Under the pieces are notes generated by a model. It saw only the letters and a list, made by a program, of their open reading frames with translations. It was not told the origin of the DNA and did no database searches. Positions 989 through 54,907 of a DNA stretch of 64,000 nucleotides are shown in pieces (positions within the stretch are counted from its first letter, which is position 1; every line of letters begins with the position of its first letter). The translations under genes and the position numbers were made by a program. This DNA is from Dehalococcoidia bacterium. GTDB taxonomy: Bacteria > Chloroflexota > Dehalococcoidia > Lucifugimonadales > UBA3495. Location: NCBI GenBank assembly GCA_965232895.1, contig OZ247430.1, positions 3,456,122-3,520,121 of the forward strand, given 5' to 3'.

Positions 989-1753
989 ATGTATATACTC
1001 TATCTGGATGAGTCTGGTGCCCATGGCGAAGCCAGCCACTTCGTGCTCGCCGGCCTTGCTGTGTTCGAACGGGAAATCCATTGGTTCAGTCAGGATCTGG
1101 ATGCCCTACAGCGGGAGTTTTTACCTAACGAAACTGGACCCGTTTTCTTCCACGCTTCGCAACTACGAACAAGGGTCAACGACAACGTCGAGGCACCTTG
1201 GGACAAACTGACGGTGGAACAGCGCCGGGAATTGAAGGACCGGGTGTACGATGTTATACGGACGAGAAGGGCGGTCCTTTTTGCCTGTGCGGTGGACAAA
1301 TCGTACGCCGGCCTCCGTAACGAAGATCCGTATGAACGAGCATTTGAGGATCTGATAAGCAGGTTTGATTTGTTCATGAGTCGGGCAAACCGACAAGCGA
1401 TTGCCGAAGGTTCTGGGGAGCAACGTGGTTTGGTCGTGCTGGCCGAGTCGAGTTATCAAAAAACGCTAGCTCTTTTGGCACAGAGGCTTCGGCAGGAAGG
1501 CACCAGATGGCGCAACCTGCATAACGTGACTGATATTCCATACTTCGCTCCGGCACGAGATACCCGATTGCTCCAATATGCGGATTTTTGTGCAAATGCC
1601 ATTTACGGACGATACCACTCCAAACTCACTGGTGATTTCGACCGAATCGCTCACAAATTCGACATGGAGTCAGGAGTGGTCCACGGATTGGCACATCTCA
1701 CCAGGGACTCATCATGTGTCTGTTTGGCTTGCTTCAGCAGGCACGATCGCTGA
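989..1753 (+). CDS. DUF3800-family protein
   Basis: The N-terminus MYILYLDESG matches the DUF3800 signature as I recall it. The gene is visibly more AT-rich than its flanks. Confidence 0.6.
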   Translation: MYILYLDESGAHGEASHFVLAGLAVFEREIHWFSQDLDALQREFLPNETGPVFFHASQLRTRVNDNVEAPWDKLTVEQRRELKDRVYDVIRTRRAVLFACAVDKSYAGLRNEDPYERAFEDLISRFDLFMSRANRQAIAEGSGEQRGLVVLAESSYQKTLALLAQRLRQEGTRWRNLHNVTDIPYFAPARDTRLLQYADFCANAIYGRYHSKLTGDFDRIAHKFDMESGVVHGLAHLTRDSSCVCLACFSRHDR

Positions 1754-1771
1754 ATTAGCGTAGGTGTACCC

Positions 1772-2185
1772 ATGGTGATTTCGCTGCTCCAAACGTTCAA
1801 CCCGGCTGACTACGCCGGCAACTGGCTGGCGGTAGTAATCGCCATCGCCATCGCGCTGGCGGCTATCGGGGCGATGTTCGCTGGTTCGCAACTGCTTTCG
1901 GCCCGGCGCCGCTCCGCCGTCAAGCTCACGACCTACGAATGCGGGATACCGCCGACGCCGTTCGCGTGGTCGAATATCAACATCCGCTTCTACATCTTTG
2001 CGATCCTGTTCCTGATATTCGATGTTGAAGCGGTCTTCCTGTTCCCGTGGGCCGTGGTATTTCTGCAGGAAAAAGCGGTGAACGGCAACGCCATACCGTT
2101 CTACGCCATGCTGCTGTTCCTGGCCATGCTGTTTTTCGCCGTTATCTACGGGTGGCGCAAGGGGGTTCTGGATTGGCAGAAATAA
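1772..2185 (+). CDS. nuoA: NADH-quinone oxidoreductase subunit A
   Basis: YECGIPP...[24 protein letters not shown]; three TM segments; first gene of the nuo cluster. Confidence 0.93.
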
Positions 2186-26228: not shown

Positions 26229-27681
26229 GTAGGGGCGAATGATTATTCGCCCCATAGGCATCAAGTTAAGGGAAGCTGCCGGTAAGATGGTGATTGCATT
26301 CCAATCAATCGCCACCGGAGCTTCCCATGAGCAGTGTGCCAGAAGTTGCCCAGGCCATGAGCCGGGTTCTCACCGGAGTGGCCCAGCAGGCCGCCGCCGA
26401 GACGGGGCTGGTGCAACGGCGTTCCAAACTCACCGGTCCCGGCTTGGTGCAGACCCTGGTTTTCGGTTGGCTGGCCGACCCGGACGCCAGCCTCAGTTCG
26501 CTGACCCAGATGGCGGCCACGCTGGGGGTGACCATCAGTCCCCAGGGCCTGTTCCAGCGGTTCACGCCCCAAGGGGCGGAATGTCTGTACCGAGTTTTGC
26601 AAGAGGCTTTGGGTCAAGTTATTGACGCCGAACCGGTGGCGATTCCGCTACTGCGGCGCTTCACCGCCGTGTTGATCCAGGACAGCTCGGTCATCATGCT
26701 GCCCGACGGACTGAGCGAGGTCTGGGCCGGTTGCGGCGGCAGCGGTTCCTATGGACAGTCAGCCCTGAAACTACAGGTCCGGCTGGATTTGACCACTGTT
26801 TCTGATGCTGGGGCCTTTTCTGACTGATGGGCGAACCCCGGACAGCAATTCTGCGGTGCAGACGGCGCCGGTCCCAGCTGGCGCGCTGCGCATTGCCGAC
26901 TTGGGGTATTACCGACTGGATACCTTCCGGGAATTGGCGGCGCAAGGGGGCTATTTCCTGTCTCGGTACAAAGCCGGAACCAAACTCTACCGGCATGATG
27001 GCGCGGAACTGGACCTGCGGAAGCTGCTGTCCACTCCGTCGGCAACCGGCATTGACCGGCCGGTATTGCTGGGGCGCGCCCACCGCTTGCCTGTCCGCCT
27101 GCTGGCCGTCAAAGCGCCCCCAGAAGTGAGCGCCCAGCGGCGGCGGCAACTCAAAGACCACGCCCGCAAGAAAGGTCAGCAGCCCAGCAAAACCCGGTTG
27201 GCCTTATGCGACTGGACCATCTACGTTACCAACGCGCTCCCATCCCAGATCAGCCGAGATGAGGCAATGGTATTGGCGCGGGCGCGCTGGCAGATTGAAC
27301 TGCTTTTCAAACTGTGGAAGCAACACGGAGGCATTGACCGCTGGCGCTCCGCCAATCCCTGGCGGATCCTCTGTGAGGTCTATGCCAAACTGACCGCCAT
27401 GGTCATCCTGCACTGGACTTTGCTGACTGCGGTCTGGATGTACCCGGACCGAAGCCTGGTCAAGGCCGCCGCCGCCGTCCGTCGCTACGCCGTAATGCTG
27501 GCTACTGCCATGACCGGACTACTTACGGCAACCATGGTCATCGAGCAGATTGGCTTATGCCTGCGCGCCGGGTGTAAAATCCAGCGGCGTCGTCAACGCC
27601 CCGGGTCATATCAACTACTACTCGCCCTAACCGACGACGCTTAACTTGATGCCTATGGGGCGAATGATTATTCGCCCCTAC
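26229..27681 (+). mobile_element. IS4-family insertion sequence, copy A (frameshifted)
   Basis: 17-bp perfect IR ataggcatcaagttaag, bracketed by ggggcgaatgattattcgcccc on both sides. Nearly identical to copies B and C. Confidence 0.9.
26327..27644 (+). pseudogene. IS4-family DDE transposase, disrupted by a +1 frameshift
   Basis: tttc at 26799..26802 replaces gac (52600..52602 in copy B). This splits the ORF into 26294..26827 and 26805..27644. Confidence 0.85.
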
Positions 27682-28175: not shown

Positions 28176-28718
28176 CTACCGATCAACCAGACAGGCAATC
28201 ACCTGCGCCGCCGCCGTGGCCGCTCGCTCGGACAACTCGGCATCGGTCAGGGTTACGATGGGGTGCTCGATGATCGCCAGCCCGTACTCGGGGTCGCCGC
28301 GCATGCGGGACATGGCGTGGGCCTGGCTCACGAAGGGTCGGGTAGTCAATACGGTGGAAGGGATGCCCAGCAACTCGGTTTCCATTGCATCGTGCACACT
28401 GCACGCGGTGCAGGACCCTCATTCCGCCGTGGCATGTATTGCCACGTCAATGCTCTTTGCGGTGCGCTGCAGGTCCTCGATGCGGGCCGGCCACTGCCAG
28501 CCGCCCTTGTTGTGCTCCACGGCGCCGGCGATGTCGTAGCGTTCGCCGAGGATGGCGGCGATGCGGCGGAGCAGGTCCTCGGAGTGGGGCTTGTTGTTGG
28601 CGAACAAGCCGATCACCTTGCCGTCCAGGGTCGCCGGGCGCTGCGCCAACCGCGACGGAGCCGGCGGGGAGTCGTCACGCGGATCCAGCGTGACGATGGG
28701 AGTGGATTGTGTTGTCAT
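28176..28718 (-). CDS. UGSC-motif selenoprotein (in-frame UGA at 28419..28421)
   Basis: ORFs 28419..28718 and 28176..28397 share a frame. Read-through gives ...AIHATAE-U-GSCTACSVHDAMETE... The paralog at 42626..43165 has the same arrangement. AGGAG RBS. Confidence 0.72.
28391..28405 (-). promoter_or_regulatory. Candidate SECIS-like hairpin (CGUGCA-GUG-UGCACG)
   Basis: A 6-bp stem starts 14 nt after the UGA. It matches the hairpin at 42844..42858 in position and shape, with compensatory changes. Confidence 0.4.
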
Positions 28719-39943: not shown

Positions 39944-40384
39944 CTACCCCGGAATTTGCCTGGCGAGGTCGGCAACGCGGGCTACGGTGGAGAGAGGTGG
40001 AATGACGCCGGGCGGGGTTGGCGTGTTGGCAACCCGGAGCAGCTCCGCTACCGGGATGCGGAGCTGCCGGTGCAGGGTCTCCGCCATCGCCAGCGTCATC
40101 TCCTGTTCGCCGGCCAGTAATTCTTCAATATCGCCCTGGTCGCCCAGCAGTTGATTGATAGCCTGTACCGTCCAGCCCTTTTCCTCAACCCAGAACCGAA
40201 TGAGTGCCCGGCCTTCGGGGACGGGCATCGGAATGTTGCGATACTCGTAGAGCAGAACCAGGTCAACCAGGAGGTCGAGCTCTTCATCCTCCGGAGTGTC
40301 AGGTTCGGCATCCATCAGAATTTCAATGCGAGCCAATGCCGCTTCGTATTCCTCTTCGGTCCGGACTGGCTTGATATTACACAT
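39944..40384 (-). CDS. higA: HigA-family antitoxin (HTH)
   Basis: TEEEYEAALARIEILMDAEPDTPEDEELDLL followed by an HTH-like C-domain. Lies 3 nt downstream of higB. Confidence 0.75.
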   Translation of the reverse strand: MCNIKPVRTEEEYEAALARIEILMDAEPDTPEDEELDLLVDLVLLYEYRNIPMPVPEGRALIRFWVEEKGWTVQAINQLLGDQGDIEELLAGEQEMTLAMAETLHRQLRIPVAELLRVANTPTPPGVIPPLSTVARVADLARQIPG

Positions 40385-40387
40385 TCC

Positions 40388-40681
40388 CTAAACCTCCGCG
40401 GCGTTGATACGGTCGTACTCGGTGTGGCTGCCGATAAAGCGGATGTAAACTGCTCGCCGCCTGTAATTGATATTGACTACTAATCGATAGTCGTTGCCTT
40501 TGATGTTGAACACTACCCGGTTGCCAGCAATGATACTCGCGTTGGCGAATTGAGCCCTCACTGCTGCCGGTGTATCCCAGTTTGCATCGTCAGCATCCTG
40601 ATACCAACTGCGCAAGGGCCGTTCTGCATCAGCATGGCGCTCCCAAAATTCGCGCAATGTCCTCTTGGAGAAGACCCTCAT
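40388..40681 (-). CDS. higB: HigB-family toxin (mRNA interferase)
   Basis: MRVFSKRTLREFWERH...VVFNIKGNDYRLVVNINYRRRAVYIRFIGSHTEYDRI is the HigB_toxin pattern. Confidence 0.85.
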   Translation of the reverse strand: MRVFSKRTLREFWERHADAERPLRSWYQDADDANWDTPAAVRAQFANASIIAGNRVVFNIKGNDYRLVVNINYRRRAVYIRFIGSHTEYDRINAAEV

Positions 40682-40750: not shown

Positions 40751-41824
40751 TCAGCCCGGGATCTCTATCTTCTCCGTCACCACGCGGGTCACTCCCCAAC
40801 CGGCGAGCCAGGCGGAGTGACGGCCGTCGCCCCCGGCTACCACCACTACGATGTCGTCGACCTGCGGCGCTATCGGCACCATGGTATTCGGGTCGTCATC
40901 ATTAACCCAATCCGGGTAGTTGCGGTTGCCCCAGTGTCCCAGGCCCGACAGGTCGGCGATGGACATGCGCGCGTTGGCGAACACGTACTCGCGAACGTCC
41001 TGCTTGGTGAACCCGTCCGCCGCGATTTCCGCCGCGTGCTCCGGGCTCAGCACCAGCGTCACCTGCGCCCCGGTTCCGATCTGGTAGTAATTCGAAAAGC
41101 CGGTGGCCCGGGTCCCTTGCACCAGCGTGCGGAGCACTTCGGTTCCGGTGGATACCGTCGTCTCCATGATCGGGTAGAAGCCCCTGATGGCGTGGAGGGT
41201 CACCATGCTGTCTTCGGGATCGAGCCCCAGCTCCACGTGCCTCGGCTCCCACGGGCTGCGCGCCTCGTTCTCCGCGAAGCAGAAAGAGTACCTGCCAGGC
41301 ATGGCCAGGGTGGCCTTGTCCATGTCGCCGATGATGAGACCGGCTACGTTGCGCACGAACAGGCGCAGCGCCCGGCCGATGGTAGCGTTGGCCCGGTAGC
41401 CCGGCCCGAACGCCCCGGAATCGCCGTTGATGCCCAGGCGCTCGGCAATCGGGCCGTTCACGATCACCACCGGCGCGGCGCCGCCCGTGGTGGCCTGGCA
41501 CCCGGCCAGGTTGAACGACGTTTGCAGGGCCGCCTTCACGCACGCCACCACCACCGGAAAATACTCGGGCCGGCACCCGGCCATCACCGCGTTGATCGCG
41601 ACCTTCTCGATGGTGACCACCGAGTTGGACGGCTGCGCGATCCCCAAGGACAGGGCCGGGTCCTCGCCCCAAGGCCCTAGCATGCGCTGGACCGCATCTT
41701 CCGTGGCCGGAACGACGGGCATACCGTCAGTCCATCCCTGCTCTTCGTAGTAGTCCTGGATCGCGTCGTAGGAGTCAGGCACGTCGATGCGTCGCGAGTT
41801 CAAGGCTCGACTGTTGCTTGTCAT
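40751..41824 (-). CDS. Conserved protein of unknown function, partner B (paralog of 28775..29776)
   Basis: QGWTDGMPVVPAT, VAINAVMAGCRPEYFPVV and RANATIGRALRL align with partner A. ATG 41824 was chosen inside ORF 40751..41929. Confidence 0.7.
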   Translation of the reverse strand: MTSNSRALNSRRIDVPDSYDAIQDYYEEQGWTDGMPVVPATEDAVQRMLGPWGEDPALSLGIAQPSNSVVTIEKVAINAVMAGCRPEYFPVVVACVKAALQTSFNLAGCQATTGGAAPVVIVNGPIAERLGINGDSGAFGPGYRANATIGRALRLFVRNVAGLIIGDMDKATLAMPGRYSFCFAENEARSPWEPRHVELGLDPEDSMVTLHAIRGFYPIMETTVSTGTEVLRTLVQGTRATGFSNYYQIGTGAQVTLVLSPEHAAEIAADGFTKQDVREYVFANARMSIADLSGLGHWGNRNYPDWVNDDDPNTMVPIAPQVDDIVVVVAGGDGRHSAWLAGWGVTRVVTEKIEIPG

Positions 41825-42590
41825 AACGTTCACTCTTCTGAAGTGGATTTTGTGGTTCGTCGCGTGTGTACAGGTCCGCAACGACGCCGAAATGGTCGGA
41901 TAGCCGCCGGTCCCCGTCCGTGTTGTCAATCGTCGTCAGTGAGCCGGCGGACAGATCGCCGCTGATGGCGATGTGATCGATTGCGCGCCGCCCCCGCAAT
42001 CCAAGCCCGGCAGTGGCTATGGTCAAGCCCGGCGTTGGTCCGGCAAGCATGGTCTCTTGCAATTCGGCGCGCACCGGATTGAGTAGTGGCGGAAATGGGC
42101 GTCGTCGTTGTCCGATCTGTTGGTTGAAGTCGCCCGTCAGGACGACCGGGTATGACGCTTTGCGGTTTAGAATCGAAGCCAAGCCTTTGAGATACGTGGA
42201 ATGTTCTTCCCACGGTCGTTTGTCCCTGGATCCCACGTTCACGTTGGCGTTGTGCCAGGGGATGCAGACCCCGATTACCATCACGTCGCCAATCGAGGTT
42301 CGGGTGATCCCGGACACGAACCGTCCGGGCGGCATTGCGGAGTCGCCAGACCAGTCTATGTTTCGCCAGGGGTGACGCGACCAGAGCAGGACCTTGCGCC
42401 GCCCTTGAATCACGGGACCCCCGGAGTAGGGTTGCGGCCAGATCGAGTAGCCGCATCCCGCGAGCAGATTCTTGCTTGTCTCCGTGAGGCAGATCACCTC
42501 GGGATCATGGCTCGCAATGCGGCGCAAAACTTCTGGGCTACGCGCCGCAGCGGGCGTAGCCCATTGAACATTCCAGTTGACCACTTTCAT
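41775..42590 (-). CDS. Endonuclease/exonuclease/phosphatase (EEP) family protein
   Basis: MKVVNWNVQW...VICLTE...VLTGDFN...DHIAISGD...SDHFGV. Confidence 0.8.
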   Translation of the reverse strand: MKVVNWNVQWATPAAARSPEVLRRIASHDPEVICLTETSKNLLAGCGYSIWPQPYSGGPVIQGRRKVLLWSRHPWRNIDWSGDSAMPPGRFVSGITRTSIGDVMVIGVCIPWHNANVNVGSRDKRPWEEHSTYLKGLASILNRKASYPVVLTGDFNQQIGQRRRPFPPLLNPVRAELQETMLAGPTPGLTIATAGLGLRGRRAIDHIAISGDLSAGSLTTIDNTDGDRRLSDHFGVVADLYTRDEPQNPLQKSERYDKQQSSLELATHRRA

Positions 42591-42625
42591 GTTGAAAGCG
42601 GCTGGCTATCCGACGCGACCGGGGT

Positions 42626-43165
42626 TTACTTCCCGTTGGTCAGCATCTCGGCGATCCGGCCGGCGTAGTCGTGCGCCAGTTGCTGCACGTCCGGTATTGA
42701 CCGCGAAGCCAGCGGGCTGGGCAGAGCCAGGATCTGAACGCCAGGCATTCCCAGCGAGGAGGCGCGGGCGTACGCGGCCCGGGTGAAACTCTCGGTGATT
42801 ACGCTCACAGACGGGACGCCGCGGGTTTCGGTAACTACTGTGTCGTGGAGACCCCACGCCGTGCAGCTCCCTCAATCCGCGATTCCGTGCACCACCGCAT
42901 CGCACTGCTCGATCAGTTCTTCGATGGTCTCGTCGGAGCAGGGAGCGCTGAAGCTGAACTTGCGCAGGTACACCACCTTCTCGACGGCATACTCCTCCTC
43001 CAGGATGACCTGAAGCTCCTGCAGGAAGTTGTCGGAATGGTACTTGCGGTTTTCCAGCAGGCCGATGGTCTTGCCGGAGAGGCTGGGCAACCGGTCGGTC
43101 GCCGCGCGCTCCTCGGTTTTTTGCTCCGGACGCGGGTCCAGTATCTGGATGGTTGCAGTCGTCAT
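42626..43165 (-). CDS. UGSC-motif selenoprotein, paralog B (in-frame UGA at 42872..42874)
   Basis: ORFs 42872..43195 and 42626..42808 share a frame. Read-through gives ...AVVHGIAD-U-GSCTAWGLHDTVV... ATG 43165 follows a GGAGG RBS. Confidence 0.72.
42844..42858 (-). promoter_or_regulatory. Candidate SECIS-like hairpin (CGUGGG-GUC-UCCACG)
   Basis: Starts 14 nt after the UGA, the same offset as in locus A. Stem positions 5 and 6 covary relative to locus A. Confidence 0.4.
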
Positions 43166-43192
43166 GATTCCTCCGATTATTCTTTCAACCGC

Positions 43193-43217
43193 CATTCTCG
43201 TGAAAGCGGGAATCCAG
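43193..43217. repeat. Degenerate REP-like hairpin (cattctcgtgaaagcgggaatccag)
   Basis: Same family as 11311..11330 and the MITE hairpins. Lies in the spacer between the GuaB3-like gene and the UGSC-B gene. Confidence 0.45.
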
Positions 43218-43220
43218 AGT

Positions 43221-44357
43221 TTATCCCAGCATCTGATAGTGCTTGCCCTCGGTTTTGATGGCCGGGGCGATGACCATTTCGGTCTTGTGGAAATCGCGGA
43301 CGGTGTACGCGCCGCACATGCCCATGGCCACCCGCAAGGCGCCGACGAGGTTCTGGGTTCCGTTGGTGACGCTGGACGGCCCGTGCATCAACTGCTTCAG
43401 GGAGCCCTTGGTGCCGACGTTGATGCGCGTGCCCCGGGGCAGTTCGGGGTGTGCGTTCGCCATGCCCCAGTTGTAGCCGCGGCCCGGAGCCTCCGCCGCC
43501 TGCGCAAAGGGTGTGCCCAGCATCACTCCGTCAGCTCCGCTGGCTATCGCCTTGCAAACGTCGCCGCCGGTCCGCAGTCCGCCGTCAGTGATCACGCTGA
43601 CGTACCGCCCGGTGCGCTGGAAGTAGTCCTCCCGGGCCGCCGCGCATTCCAGGGTTGCGGTCACCTGCGGTACGCCGACCCCGGTCACCTCGCGGGTGGT
43701 GCAGGCCGCGCCCGGGCCGACCCCGACCAGCACGGCATCGATCCCAGTTTCCATCAACTCGCTGGCTACGCTGTAGCTGACGCAGTTCCCGACCACCACC
43801 GGAACATCGAGCGATTCGATCAACTCGGCAAAGATGAGACCCCGGTAACTGCGGGACATGTGCCGAGCGGTGGTTACGGTGGATTGCACCACGATGATAT
43901 CGGCGCCGGCCTCGACGGCCATCGGGCTCAGCCGCTTGGTGGTCTGGGGCGTGAACGCGATGGCGGCGATGGATCCAGTCTGCTTGATTTCCTGGACACG
44001 CTCGCCGATGAGGTGATCCTGGACCGGCTGGCTGTAAACTTCTTGCAGGTACTCCGTGACCTCGGCCTGGTCCATGGAGATGATTTCCTCCAGGACCGAA
44101 TACGGATCTTCGTAGCGCGTGTACAGGCCCTCGCCGTTGAGCACCCCCAGACCGCCCATTTCGTGCATCAGGGTGGCGAATCGGGGAGACACGGATCCGT
44201 CCATGGCTGAGGCCATCACCGGAGCGTCGAAAGAGTATTGGCCGATGCTCATTTTCGTGGACGTCATTTCCGGGTTGATTGTGACATCGCCCGGGACGAT
44301 CGCGACTTCATCAAAGCCATAGGATCGTTCCAGTTCTTTGAGCAAACGCCTGACCAT
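43221..44357 (-). CDS. GuaB3-type IMP dehydrogenase-related protein
   Basis: [12 protein letters not shown]...MASAMDG...[20 protein letters not shown]; 378 aa, no CBS insert. Confidence 0.85.
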
Positions 44358-52029: not shown

Positions 52030-53468
52030 GTAGGGGCGAATGATCATTCGCCCCATAGGCATCAAGTTAAGGGAAGCTGCCGGTAAGATGGTGATTGCAT
52101 TCCAATCAATCGCCACCGGAGCTTCCCATGAGCAGTGTGCCAGAAGTTGCCCAGGCCATGAGCCGGGTTCTCACCGGAGTGGCCCAGCAGGCCGCCGCCG
52201 AGACGGGGCTGGTGCAACGGCGTTCCAAACTCACCGGTCCCGGCTTGGTGCAGACCCTGGTTTTCGGTTGGCTGGCCGACCCGGACGCCAGCCTCAGTTC
52301 GCTGACCCAGATGGCGGCCACGCTGGGGGTGACCATCAGTCCCCAGGGCCTGTTCCAGCGGTTCACGCCCCAAGGGGCGGAATGTCTGTACCGAGTTTTG
52401 CAAGAGGCTTTGGGTCAAGTTATTGACGCCGAACCGGTGGCGATTCCGCTACTGCGGCGCTTCACCGCCGTGTTGATCCAGGACAGCTCGGTCATCATGC
52501 TGCCCGACGGACTGAGCGAGGTCTGGGCCGGTTGCGGCGGCAGCGGTTCCTATGGACAGTCAGCCCTGAAACTACAGGTCCGGCTGGATTTGACCACTGG
52601 ACTGATGCTGGGGCCTTTTCTGACTGATGGGCGAACCCCGGACAGCAATTCTGCGGTGCAGACGGCGCCGGTCCCAGCTGGCGCGCTGCGCATTGCCGAC
52701 TTGGGGTATTACCGACTGGATACCTTCCGGGAATTGGCGGCGCAAGGGGGCTATTTCCTGTCTCGGTACAAAGCCGGAACCAAACTCTACCGGCATGATG
52801 GCGCGGAACTGGACCTGCGGAAGCTGCTGTCCACTCCGTCGGCAACCGGCATTGACCGGCCGGTATTGCTGGGGCGCGCCCACCGCTTGCCTGTCCGCCT
52901 GCTGGCCGTCAAAGCGCCCCCAGAAGTGAGCGCCCAGCGGCGGCGGCAACTCAAAGACCACGCCCGCAAGAAAGGTCAGCAGCCCAGCAAAACCCGGTTG
53001 GCCTTATGCGACTGGACCATCTACGTTACCAACGCGCTCCCATCCCAGATCAGCCGAGATGAGGCAATGGTATTGGCGCGGGCGCGCTGGCAGATTGAAC
53101 TGCTTTTCAAACTGTGGAAGCAACACGGAGGCATTGACCGCTGGCGCTCCGCCAATCCCTGGCGGATCCTCTGTGAGGTCTATGCCAAACTGACCGCCAT
53201 GGTCATCCTGCACTGGACTTTGCTGACTGCGGTCTGGATGTACCCGGACCGAAGCCTGGTCAAGGCCGCCGCCGCCGTCCGTCGCTACGCCGTAATGCTG
53301 GCTACTGCCATGACCGGACTACTTACGGCAACCATGGTCATCGAGCAGATTGGCTTATGCCTGCGCGCCGGGTGTAAAATCCAGCGGCGTCGTCAACGCC
53401 CCGGGTCATATCAACTACTACTCGCCCTAACCGACGACGCTTAACTTGATGCCTATGGGGGCGAATGA
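52030..53468 (+). mobile_element. IS4-family insertion sequence, copy B (intact)
   Basis: Same IRs as copy A. The right boundary is set at the centre of the palindrome shared with copy C. Confidence 0.9.
52128..53444 (+). CDS. IS4-family DDE transposase
   Basis: VLIQDSS..., RIADLGYY..., ARARWQIELLFKLWKQ (R-x3-E-x6-K). ATG 52128 follows GGAG. The ORF track starts at TTG 52095. Confidence 0.9.
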   Translation: MSSVPEVAQAMSRVLTGVAQQAAAETGLVQRRSKLTGPGLVQTLVFGWLADPDASLSSLTQMAATLGVTISPQGLFQRFTPQGAECLYRVLQEALGQVIDAEPVAIPLLRRFTAVLIQDSSVIMLPDGLSEVWAGCGGSGSYGQSALKLQVRLDLTTGLMLGPFLTDGRTPDSNSAVQTAPVPAGALRIADLGYYRLDTFRELAAQGGYFLSRYKAGTKLYRHDGAELDLRKLLSTPSATGIDRPVLLGRAHRLPVRLLAVKAPPEVSAQRRRQLKDHARKKGQQPSKTRLALCDWTIYVTNALPSQISRDEAMVLARARWQIELLFKLWKQHGGIDRWRSANPWRILCEVYAKLTAMVILHWTLLTAVWMYPDRSLVKAAAAVRRYAVMLATAMTGLLTATMVIEQIGLCLRAGCKIQRRRQRPGSYQLLLALTDDA

Positions 53469-54907
53469 TCATTCGCCCCCATAGGCATCAAGTTAAGGGA
53501 AGCTGCCGGTAAGATGGTGATTGCATTCCAATCAATCGCCACCGGAGCTTCCCATGAGCAGTGTGCCAGAAGTTGCCCAGGCCATGAGCCGGGTTCTCAC
53601 CGGAGTGGCCCAGCAGGCCGCCGCCGAGACGGGGCTGGTGCAACGGCGTTCCAAACTCACCGGTCCCGGCTTGGTGCAGACCCTGGTTTTCGGTTGGCTG
53701 GCCGACCCGGACGCCAGCCTCAGTTCGCTGACCCAGATGGCGGCCACGCTGGGGGTGACCATCAGTCCCCAGGGCCTGTTCCAGCGGTTCACGCCCCAAG
53801 GGGCGGAATGTCTGTACCGAGTTTTGCAAGAGGCTTTGGGTCAAGTTATTGACGCCGAACCGGTGGCGATTCCGCTACTGCGGCGCTTCACCGCCGTGTT
53901 GATCCAGGACAGCTCGGTCATCATGCTGCCCGACGGACTGAGCGAGGTCTGGGCCGGTTGCGGCGGCAGCGGTTCCTATGGACAGTCAGCCCTGAAACTA
54001 CAGGTCCGGCTGGATTTGACCACTGGACTGATGCTGGGGCCTTTTCTGACTGATGGGCGAACCCCGGACAGCAATTCTGCGGTGCAGACGGCGCCGGTCC
54101 CAGCTGGCGCGCTGCGCATTGCCGACTTGGGGTATTACCGACTGGATACCTTCCGGGAATTGGCGGCGCAAGGGGGCTATTTCCTGTCTCGGTACAAAGC
54201 CGGAACCAAACTCTACCGGCATGATGGCGCGGAACTGGACCTGCGGAAGCTGCTGTCCACTCCGTCGGCAACCGGCATTGACCGGCCGGTATTGCTGGGG
54301 CGCGCCCACCGCTTGCCTGTCCGCCTGCTGGCCGTCAAAGCGCCCCCAGAAGTGAGCGCCCAGCGGCGGCGGCAACTCAAAGACCACGCCCGCAAGAAAG
54401 GTCAGCAGCCCAGCAAAACCCGGTTGGCCTTATGCGACTGGACCATCTACGTTACCAACGCGCTCCCATCCCAGATCAGCCGAGATGAGGCAATGGTATT
54501 GGCGCGGGCGCGCTGGCAGATTGAACTGCTTTTCAAACTGTGGAAGCAACACGGAGGCATTGACCGCTGGCGCTCCGCCAATCCCTGGCGGATCCTCTGT
54601 GAGGTCTATGCCAAACTGACCGCCATGGTCATCCTGCACTGGACTTTGCTGACTGCGGTCTGGATGTACCCGGACCGAAGCCTGGTCAAGGCCGCCGCCG
54701 CCGTCCGTCGCTACGCCGTAATGCTGGCTACTGCCATGACCGGACTACTTACGGCAACCATGGTCATCGAGCAGATTGGCTTATGCCTGCGCGCCGGGTG
54801 TAAAATCCAGCGGCGTCGTCAACGCCCCGGGTCATATCAACTACTACTCGCCCTAACCGACGACGCTTAACTTGATGCCTATGGGGCGAATGATCATTCG
54901 CCCCTAC
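53469..54907 (+). mobile_element. IS4-family insertion sequence, copy C (intact, head-to-tail with B)
   Basis: The predicted protein is identical to that of copy B. Ends ...cttaacttgatgcctatggggcgaatgatcattcgcccctac. Confidence 0.9.
53554..54870 (+). CDS. IS4-family DDE transposase
   Basis: Identical translation to 52128..53444. Confidence 0.9.
   Translation: MSSVPEVAQAMSRVLTGVAQQAAAETGLVQRRSKLTGPGLVQTLVFGWLADPDASLSSLTQMAATLGVTISPQGLFQRFTPQGAECLYRVLQEALGQVIDAEPVAIPLLRRFTAVLIQDSSVIMLPDGLSEVWAGCGGSGSYGQSALKLQVRLDLTTGLMLGPFLTDGRTPDSNSAVQTAPVPAGALRIADLGYYRLDTFRELAAQGGYFLSRYKAGTKLYRHDGAELDLRKLLSTPSATGIDRPVLLGRAHRLPVRLLAVKAPPEVSAQRRRQLKDHARKKGQQPSKTRLALCDWTIYVTNALPSQISRDEAMVLARARWQIELLFKLWKQHGGIDRWRSANPWRILCEVYAKLTAMVILHWTLLTAVWMYPDRSLVKAAAAVRRYAVMLATAMTGLLTATMVIEQIGLCLRAGCKIQRRRQRPGSYQLLLALTDDA

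Follow-up and report, generated by a model that had tools for sequence, protein, structure and literature searches.

A selectively maintained UGSC-family selenoprotein gene with an in-frame UGA in a Dehalococcoidia genome, and its pairing with a second gene

Positions 42626-43165 on the minus strand of the window (the whole stretch of 64,000 nt of DNA that was analysed) are a single, selectively maintained selenoprotein gene of the UGSC family. Codon 98 of this gene is an in-frame UGA, which the genomic and comparative data indicate is most likely decoded as selenocysteine (Sec) by the SelA/SelB/SelD/tRNA-Sec system of the genome. The best explanation of the data as a whole combines one maintained UGSC gene, decoding of Sec98 by way of a hairpin, a flavodoxin-like fold, and a Sec98/Cys101 centre that would serve a partner protein (probability approximately 0.85). 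The gene is a new member of a catalogued family, and none of the features of the module is confined to this locus.

The family corresponds to the "UGSC-containing protein" of Zhang and Gladyshev, which has 255 Sec and 21 Cys forms in GOS and belongs to the selenoprotein families found most abundantly in ocean metagenomes. It is described in the literature as a protein of unknown function, "likely" of thioredoxin-like fold and sometimes fused to a domain named "Unknown_1" (PMC2398784, PMC1976440, PMC9312934, PMC13188914). It also ranks among the most abundant selenoprotein families of aquatic samples, and its function has been unexplained since 2005-2008.

Reading frame and start of the gene

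The gene, its UGA and its ribosome-binding site were placed as follows (window coordinates):

42626..43165, minus strand: UGSC-family selenoprotein gene of the "UGSCxxW" subtype, 179 codons plus TAA, with Sec as codon 98 (read-through translation, matches to NF041046 and PF24696, orthologues in 36/36 genomes, dN/dS 0.05-0.11 on either side of the UGA)
42872..42874, minus strand: in-frame UGA, most likely the Sec codon U98, in the context GIAD-U-GSC (TGA invariant in 30 aligned orthologues; Sec machinery in the genome)
43170..43174, minus strand: Shine-Dalgarno sequence GGAGG, 5 nt ahead of the ATG at 43165 (sequence inspection)

The ORFs at 42872..43195 (-) and 42626..42808 (-) share one frame, and the 63 nt separating them are free of stops. 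When 42623-43195 (-) was translated with TGA as U, we obtained an unbroken protein with one U (...EQCDAVVHGIAD-U-GSCTAWGLHDTVVTETRGVPSVSVITESF...LTNGK), and the read-through frame ended at the TAA at 42626-42628 (-). The common frame, the open link and the single-U translation thus bear out the original prediction that the two fragments are one gene, mis-split at a UGA at 42872..42874. GC3 was 0.84 before the UGA and 0.79 after it, similar to the neighbouring genes. Two plus-strand ORFs (42783-43013 and 42845-43258) were treated as high-GC shadow frames; the GC3 of 0.79-0.84 and the conservation sit in the minus-strand frame.

By comparison of the orthologues, the ATG at 43165 is the conserved start, as had been proposed. 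The conserved region opened with MTT[A/G/P]TIQILDP, which corresponds to this ATG, in 30/30 orthologues; the stretch upstream was unconserved and was closed in several genomes by a stop codon 4-6 codons before the ATG; and GGAGG lies 5 nt before it.

The earlier note had also described an N-terminus parallel to that of a locus A, and a second recoding event. Locus A was found as another *GSC locus of the window at 28176-28718 (-), with the N-terminus MTTQSTPIVTLDPRD at 28718 (-) and its own *GSC at 28421, and the gene studied here is indeed a second instance of recoding in the window. It shares ~29% identity with locus A and falls in the other clade of the family. At this level of sequence divergence the two are best described as ancient paralogues (W-type vs C-type, 29% identity) rather than recent duplicates.

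Membership in the UGSC family

The 179-aa read-through protein (with U written as C) matched the NCBIfam model NF041046, "UGSC family (seleno)protein", with 127.5 bits, a thin margin over the cut-off of 125, and the Pfam model PF24696, "UGSC family", with 169.9 bits (cut-off 25) over profile positions 1-171 of 172; the E-values against the UGSC models were 4e-37 and 7e-50. When the UGA was scored as a stop in the genome search, the NF041046 score was 120 bits, just below the cut-off of 125. A scan of species-representative genomes gave more than 590 UGSC loci, distributed over Dehalococcoidia, Alpha-, Beta- and Gammaproteobacteria, Rokubacteria, Binatia, Actinomycetota, Myxococcota and others. 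The codon at the Sec position was TGA in 79 and TGC in one of the best 80 of these loci.

The gene resembles the family (type example Hyphomonas neptunium ABI76733.1) in its full-length HMM match above both curated cut-offs, in U-G-S-C with a TGA-encoded U followed by the HD...E..G.P...F motifs, in the hairpin right behind the UGA, and in its linkage to a putative "Unknown_1"-type partner, which was a fusion in the 2008 paper (PMC2398784). It differs from other UGSC proteins in belonging to a distinct clade, in which Trp replaces the third Cys (UGSCTAWGLHD) and the partner lies downstream rather than upstream. It differs further in that an EEP-family gene stands between the two genes of the module and that the "HP" motif reads "SP": the His of this otherwise invariant motif was Ser in 13/35 W-type sequences, namely those of this genus and its nearest relatives. 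With the third Cys lost to Trp and the His also lost, the chemistry of this clade may differ from that of other UGSC proteins.

Selection across orthologues

An orthologue of the gene, 77-97% identical and with one TGA each, was found in 36/36 same-genus genomes in a search of 60 relatives, and the TGA column was invariant in the 30 orthologues that were aligned. Pairwise Nei-Gojobori dN/dS values among the orthologues were 0.05-0.10 before the UGA (codons 1-97) and 0.08-0.11 after it (codons 99-177). Neutral evolution downstream of the UGA, which the original prediction had named as the outcome that would speak against it, was thus absent among the orthologues, and by these ratios the segment downstream of the UGA is under purifying selection. 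A dN/dS comparison with locus A, which had also been suggested, was run and was uninformative, being near saturation (pS ~0.6; identity 30% upstream and 27.5% downstream of the UGA); because the paralogue pair within the window was near saturation, the 30 orthologues were used for dN/dS instead.

Probable selenocysteine decoding

The genome (4.28 Mb in 2 contigs, 62.7% GC) contained a tRNA-SeC with anticodon tca at C1:341096-341192, and matches to selB (352.8 bits), selA (542.3 bits) and selD (371.2 bits), all above the curated cut-offs. Seven matches to the UGSC model were found in the genome, with one in-frame TGA each. Together with the family HMM matches and the conserved hairpin after the UGA, the Sec machinery agrees with the earlier assignment of the gene to the UGSC-family selenoproteins.

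TGA was the commonest terminator of the genome (395/874 long frames), and in the paralogue P2 it serves both as an internal codon and as the terminator. Recoding is therefore local or context-dependent, and the code itself is not changed.

The selD gene (locus L020, G000:C1:2589083-2590003 (+)) is itself a selenoprotein gene with one in-frame TGA (...SHCAG-U-AAKLS...), and a strong hairpin lies behind its UGA (-28.5 kcal/mol over 60 nt).

A conserved hairpin behind the UGA

The following element was located by folding the 55 nt after the UGA:

42834..42867, minus strand: SECIS-like hairpin within the coding region; lower stem 42863-42867 / 42834-42838, apical stem-loop 42844-42858, loop GGUCU at 42849-42853

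Only a few nucleotides separate the UGA from the hairpin, which overlaps with codons 100-111. The folding energy of the hairpin was no better than that of shuffled sequences (z -0.75 and -0.46); the argument for a SECIS element is therefore one of conservation and covariation. In the 30 orthologues, the stretch of nucleotides 7-44 past the UGA was invariant, except for one internal-loop site, whereas synonymous divergence elsewhere was 0.6-1.1. Synonymous-codon entropy was 0.21-0.37 in windows over codons 91-116 (minimum at 96-111), compared with ~0.7-1.3 elsewhere, and then recovered; the trough itself lies at codons 96-116. In the first 15 codons past the UGA dS was 0.24, compared with 0.72 further downstream.

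The six apical pairs were formed in 98.4% of cells in a set of 52 distinct sequences, drawn from the seven paralogue groups and from further families in the order. One apical pair swapped between CG (36) and GC (16) without any unpaired intermediate, and the pair that follows changed from AU to GU. The swap also alters the protein (Cys to Trp, Val to Leu), so that motif and RNA stem change in concert.

The only Cys (TGC) form among the 80 family loci, from a Candidatus Binatia MAG (L125, 123-656 (+)), acts as a natural control for this constraint on the RNA. This form keeps S-W-S-L-H-D, but uses AGC and CUG for the AGU and CUC of the Sec forms, so that the apical pair is broken and the GU loop is gone. 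All four lines of hairpin comparison agree, each drawing on few independent events and on related, non-independent sequences; on their evidence the conserved hairpin would be a putative signal for Sec insertion at codon 98.

As in SECIS elements of the Escherichia coli fdhF type, the hairpin lies within the coding sequence, has an apical stem from 13 nt past the UGA, and carries a G/U-containing apical loop, GGUCU. The loop of the E. coli fdhF SECIS has a GGUC core. Unlike in the fdhF type, the stem here is built from codons of the family motif W/C-G/S-L/V-H-D, with overlapping protein and RNA constraints, and the SelB site is putative. No SECIS family was found in the window at the Rfam gathering threshold, at which only tRNAs and 5S rRNA were matched.

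The partner gene and its surroundings

Two genes follow the UGSC gene on the same strand:

41775..42590, minus strand: EEP-family (endonuclease/exonuclease/phosphatase) gene between the UGSC gene and the partner gene (PF03372, E 8e-14)
40751..41824, minus strand: partner gene, 357 aa; the genome has seven such genes, all of them next to a UGSC gene or fused with one (AF2 pLDDT 92; Cys84 and Cys182 near-invariant)

All UGSC genes of the genome (7/7) adjoin, or are fused to, a member of one partner family of ~340-350 aa. Among the best 80 loci, which represent many phyla, the partner was located ≤4 kb from the UGSC gene in 73, and eight UGSC-partner fusions were found in this sample, in addition to one in this genome. 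The position of the partner followed the subtype: upstream in 43/43 UGSCxxC genes, and downstream or C-terminally fused in 30/30 UGSCxxW genes. On a maximum-likelihood tree the W forms were one clade resulting from a single change (branch support 92/89.9, with the motif columns left in); the gene-order rule thus reflects one old split and not 73 independent observations. The fusion in this genome, P7 (locus L007, G000:C1:2319514-2321154 (-), ~570 codons), joins a UGSC domain (H-U-GGCTSWLAHD) at its N-terminus to the partner domain in a single frame.

No conserved third gene was found around the 80 loci. The neighbours were lineage-specific, the counts being 16 for a luciferase-like monooxygenase, 12 for the Lin0512 family, 11 for a HIBADH-type dehydrogenase and 10 for LysR. 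The partner matched no family in Pfam (E up to 10) or NCBIfam, and profile searches of the PDB with UGSC and with the partner returned nothing meaningful. Just two cysteines of the partner were near-invariant, C84 in AINAVMAGC and C182 in FCxAENE. No consistent compensating Cys was found in the partners of W-type UGSC proteins; the partner of P5 has Ala at the sole candidate column. A stop inside the partner match of locus L106 was examined as a possible Sec codon and rejected, as it is merely the gene end. A few partners bear an N-terminal CPTC/CATC extension, with a thioredoxin match below the Pfam cut-off.

In 30/30 loci of the genus, the gene order GuaB3-like gene, UGSC, partner was retained, and these three genes were 84-100% identical across them. 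The EEP gene had no match in 4/30 of the orthologous loci, was 40-67% identical where present, and had a GC3 of 0.68, compared with 0.79-0.86 in its neighbours. On this pattern it is probably a variable insert and not part of the UGSC-partner module. This fast-evolving gene looks like the occupant of a variable cargo slot within a conserved gene pair. At one orthologous locus (L052 of genome G021, about 1230-2040 (-)), the UGSC gene lacks its normal stop, and a 91-residue C-terminal extension (...EDEQPNPQATKETLYPQCLCGCGEDKNPKSRFKQGHD...) takes the place of the EEP gene.

Predicted folds

The AlphaFold2 model of the UGSC protein, built with an 82-sequence alignment, had a pLDDT of 93 and a pTM of 0.86, and was composed of five parallel beta-alpha units (flavodoxin/Rossmann-like). 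Sec98 was placed in the loop between strand 3 (E90-96) and helix 3 (H99-114), and Cys101 in the first helical turn. The best PDB matches to this model (TM 0.41-0.53) were lumazine synthase and SIS, CheY-like and flavodoxin-like domains; the 50 best did not include a thioredoxin. The confident model, with its five beta-alpha units and without a thioredoxin among the top 50 PDB matches, therefore predicts a flavodoxin-like fold for UGSC and leaves the thioredoxin-like fold suggested in 2008 unsupported. The likeness to thioredoxin-fold selenoproteins (Trx-like, Prx-like and SelW-like UxxC/CxxU proteins) lies in a redox-type UxxC motif that opens a helix preceded by a strand. The order of elements differs, the thioredoxin fold being beta-alpha-beta-alpha-beta-beta-alpha.

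The AF2 model of the partner (pLDDT 92, pTM 0.92) had no close relative in the PDB; its Foldseek matches included a Toblerone-fold hydrolase at E 2.5e-3.

Likeness to GrdB and PrdB

The Sec region of UGSC has the same arrangement as that of the GrdB/PrdB selenoprotein B family (PF07355): a strand, a helix opening with U-x-x-C, the residues E, G and P/T at +15, +18 and +20, and the next strand, in identical register. When the UGSC profile was compared by hhalign with a profile of GrdB/PrdB-like proteins, which comprised 16 sequences only, the probability was 88.7%, below 95% (P 2.5e-6, 84 columns), and the alignment superposed the two Sec and the two Cys positions; masking of the Sec column lowered the probability to 80%. 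Control alignments (reversed, 20 shuffled, and with the partner profile) reached ≤20, the reversed and shuffled ones ≤19.7, compared with 45.9 for the UGSC-GrdB/PrdB pair. The likeness was significant only between profiles, as a single-sequence hhalign was not significant. None of the 82 UGSC sequences matched PF07355 in hmmscan (E up to 10), because the PF07355 model ends just before the Sec. The profile comparison suggests that the Sec module of UGSC is probably a remote homologue of the GrdB/PrdB Sec module, without implying membership in PF07355.

Like GrdB/PrdB, UGSC is predicted to act with a second, larger subunit. Unlike them, it lacks their long N-terminal region, and its partner, which has no pyruvoyl-proprotein signature, does not belong to the GrdE/PrdA pyruvoyl proproteins.

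The genome also encodes a PrdB/GrdB-like selenoprotein (PF07355) at G000:C1:2900343-2901480 (+) (locus L174, ...VDLVLLTPT-U-PLC-THAVSVLARVFEEAGLTTVAI...), which shares this register with UGSC. Most public relatives of this protein are pieces of 232-238 aa, approximately half of the protein, and are likewise mis-split.

Proposed function and alternative explanations

With odds slightly better than even, Sec98 and Cys101 would form a selenol/thiol redox or nucleophilic centre that serves the ~350-residue partner in a two-subunit enzyme. In this mechanism the pair would either alternate between the selenol/thiol and selenenylsulfide states or act as a nucleophilic centre, and re-reduction would be performed by thioredoxin or a similar dithiol. 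The partner, encoded two genes downstream, would be the substrate-binding and probably catalytic subunit that UGSC serves. Such an arrangement would resemble the glycine and D-proline reductases, in which the GrdB/PrdB Sec module serves a substrate-binding subunit. During D-proline reduction PrdA binds the substrate, which is attacked by the Sec of PrdB; replacing this residue by Cys (U151C) leaves an inactive protein (PMC11229817).

More tentatively, and with somewhat less than even odds, the sequence and model comparisons would allow a broader reading. UGSC and its partner may be a widespread two-subunit selenoenzyme, with a Sec module that shares GrdB/PrdB ancestry and a substrate subunit without a pyruvoyl group or a relative of solved fold; the seven diverged pairs may be substrate-diversified, Sec-dependent reductases. 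If so, seven pairs (two clades, one pair fused) in one SAR202-type genome would act on dissolved organic compounds. The two-subunit Sec-dependent enzyme becomes a testable proposal through the fixed pairing with the partner, a gene order set by clade, a predicted fold unlike that of thioredoxin and a probable kinship with GrdB/PrdB.

Four other explanations were weighed, and are given in descending order of probability. The reading in the literature, that UGSC is a free-standing thioredoxin-like thiol oxidoreductase whose link to the 350-aa protein is incidental or regulatory, is unlikely. A UxxC at the N-terminus of a helix is indeed what thioredoxin-type proteins have, and the UGSC and partner genes are non-adjacent here, but the predicted topology of five beta-alpha units found no thioredoxin among its 50 best PDB matches. 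Adjacency or fusion to the partner at 73/80 loci and at 7/7 in the genome, the eight fusions plus one, and the lack of any other gene conserved nearby also speak against it.

We likewise consider it improbable that Sec98 and Cys101 are metal or Fe-S ligands which, with the two Cys of the partner, hold an inter-subunit cluster of a hydro-lyase-like enzyme. This idea draws on the best structural matches of the partner, weak Foldseek hits to class I (Fe-S) fumarate hydratases (E 9e-5 to 3e-4), and on C84 and C182 of the partner being one or two ligands short of a cluster site, for which UGSC could supply the rest. Those matches, however, had TM values of 0.24-0.30 and an rmsd of about 16 A, no link between the partner and Fe-S hydro-lyases was found at the sequence level, and the likeness to the GrdB/PrdB Sec module points to the chemistry of a selenol nucleophile.

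Read-through of the UGA as Trp, Cys or Gly, by near-cognate tRNAs or a reassigned code, is very unlikely. Read-through alone would keep the frame open and conserved, and one relative has TGC at the Sec codon. Set against this, TGA is the commonest genuine stop of the genome, which holds a full Sec system and a selD that is also a TGA gene; a conserved hairpin occupies the position of a bacterial SECIS and is absent from the TGC form; and UGSC is catalogued as a selenoprotein family (PMC2398784, PMC13188914).

Least probable of all is that the UGA is a true stop, the locus being a decaying pseudogene or a 97-aa N-terminal protein followed by a 60-aa GTG-started ORF: standard ORF calling splits the locus, and the public protein-database relatives of this subtype (120 listed of 152) are all short N-terminal fragments of 99-124 aa, nearly all 99 aa, that hold the pre-UGA part only, but such fragments are the usual gene-caller output for any selenoprotein, purifying selection is equal on the downstream and upstream parts, the frame and the TGA are retained in 36/36 genomes, the open 63-nt link is the most conserved stretch of the gene, and the full-length family HMM match crosses the UGA.

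As the listed public entries are short N-terminal fragments, the selenoproteomes of sponge- and ocean-associated Dehalococcoidia are undercounted; this genome has seven UGSC genes, selD and the PrdB-like gene.

Other features of the window

At 39944-40681 (-), just downstream of the partner gene, a 146-aa ORF comes after a HigB-type toxin gene (PF09907, E 5.5e-31), and the two look like a toxin-antitoxin pair. The sequence ...PTWGITDWIPSGNWRRKG...CGSCCPLRRQ... occurs three times in the window on the plus strand, at about 26239-27644, 52040-53444 and 53514-54870; matching 449-aa ORFs were found at 52095-53444 and 53521-54870 (+), and the three are probably copies of a mobile element.
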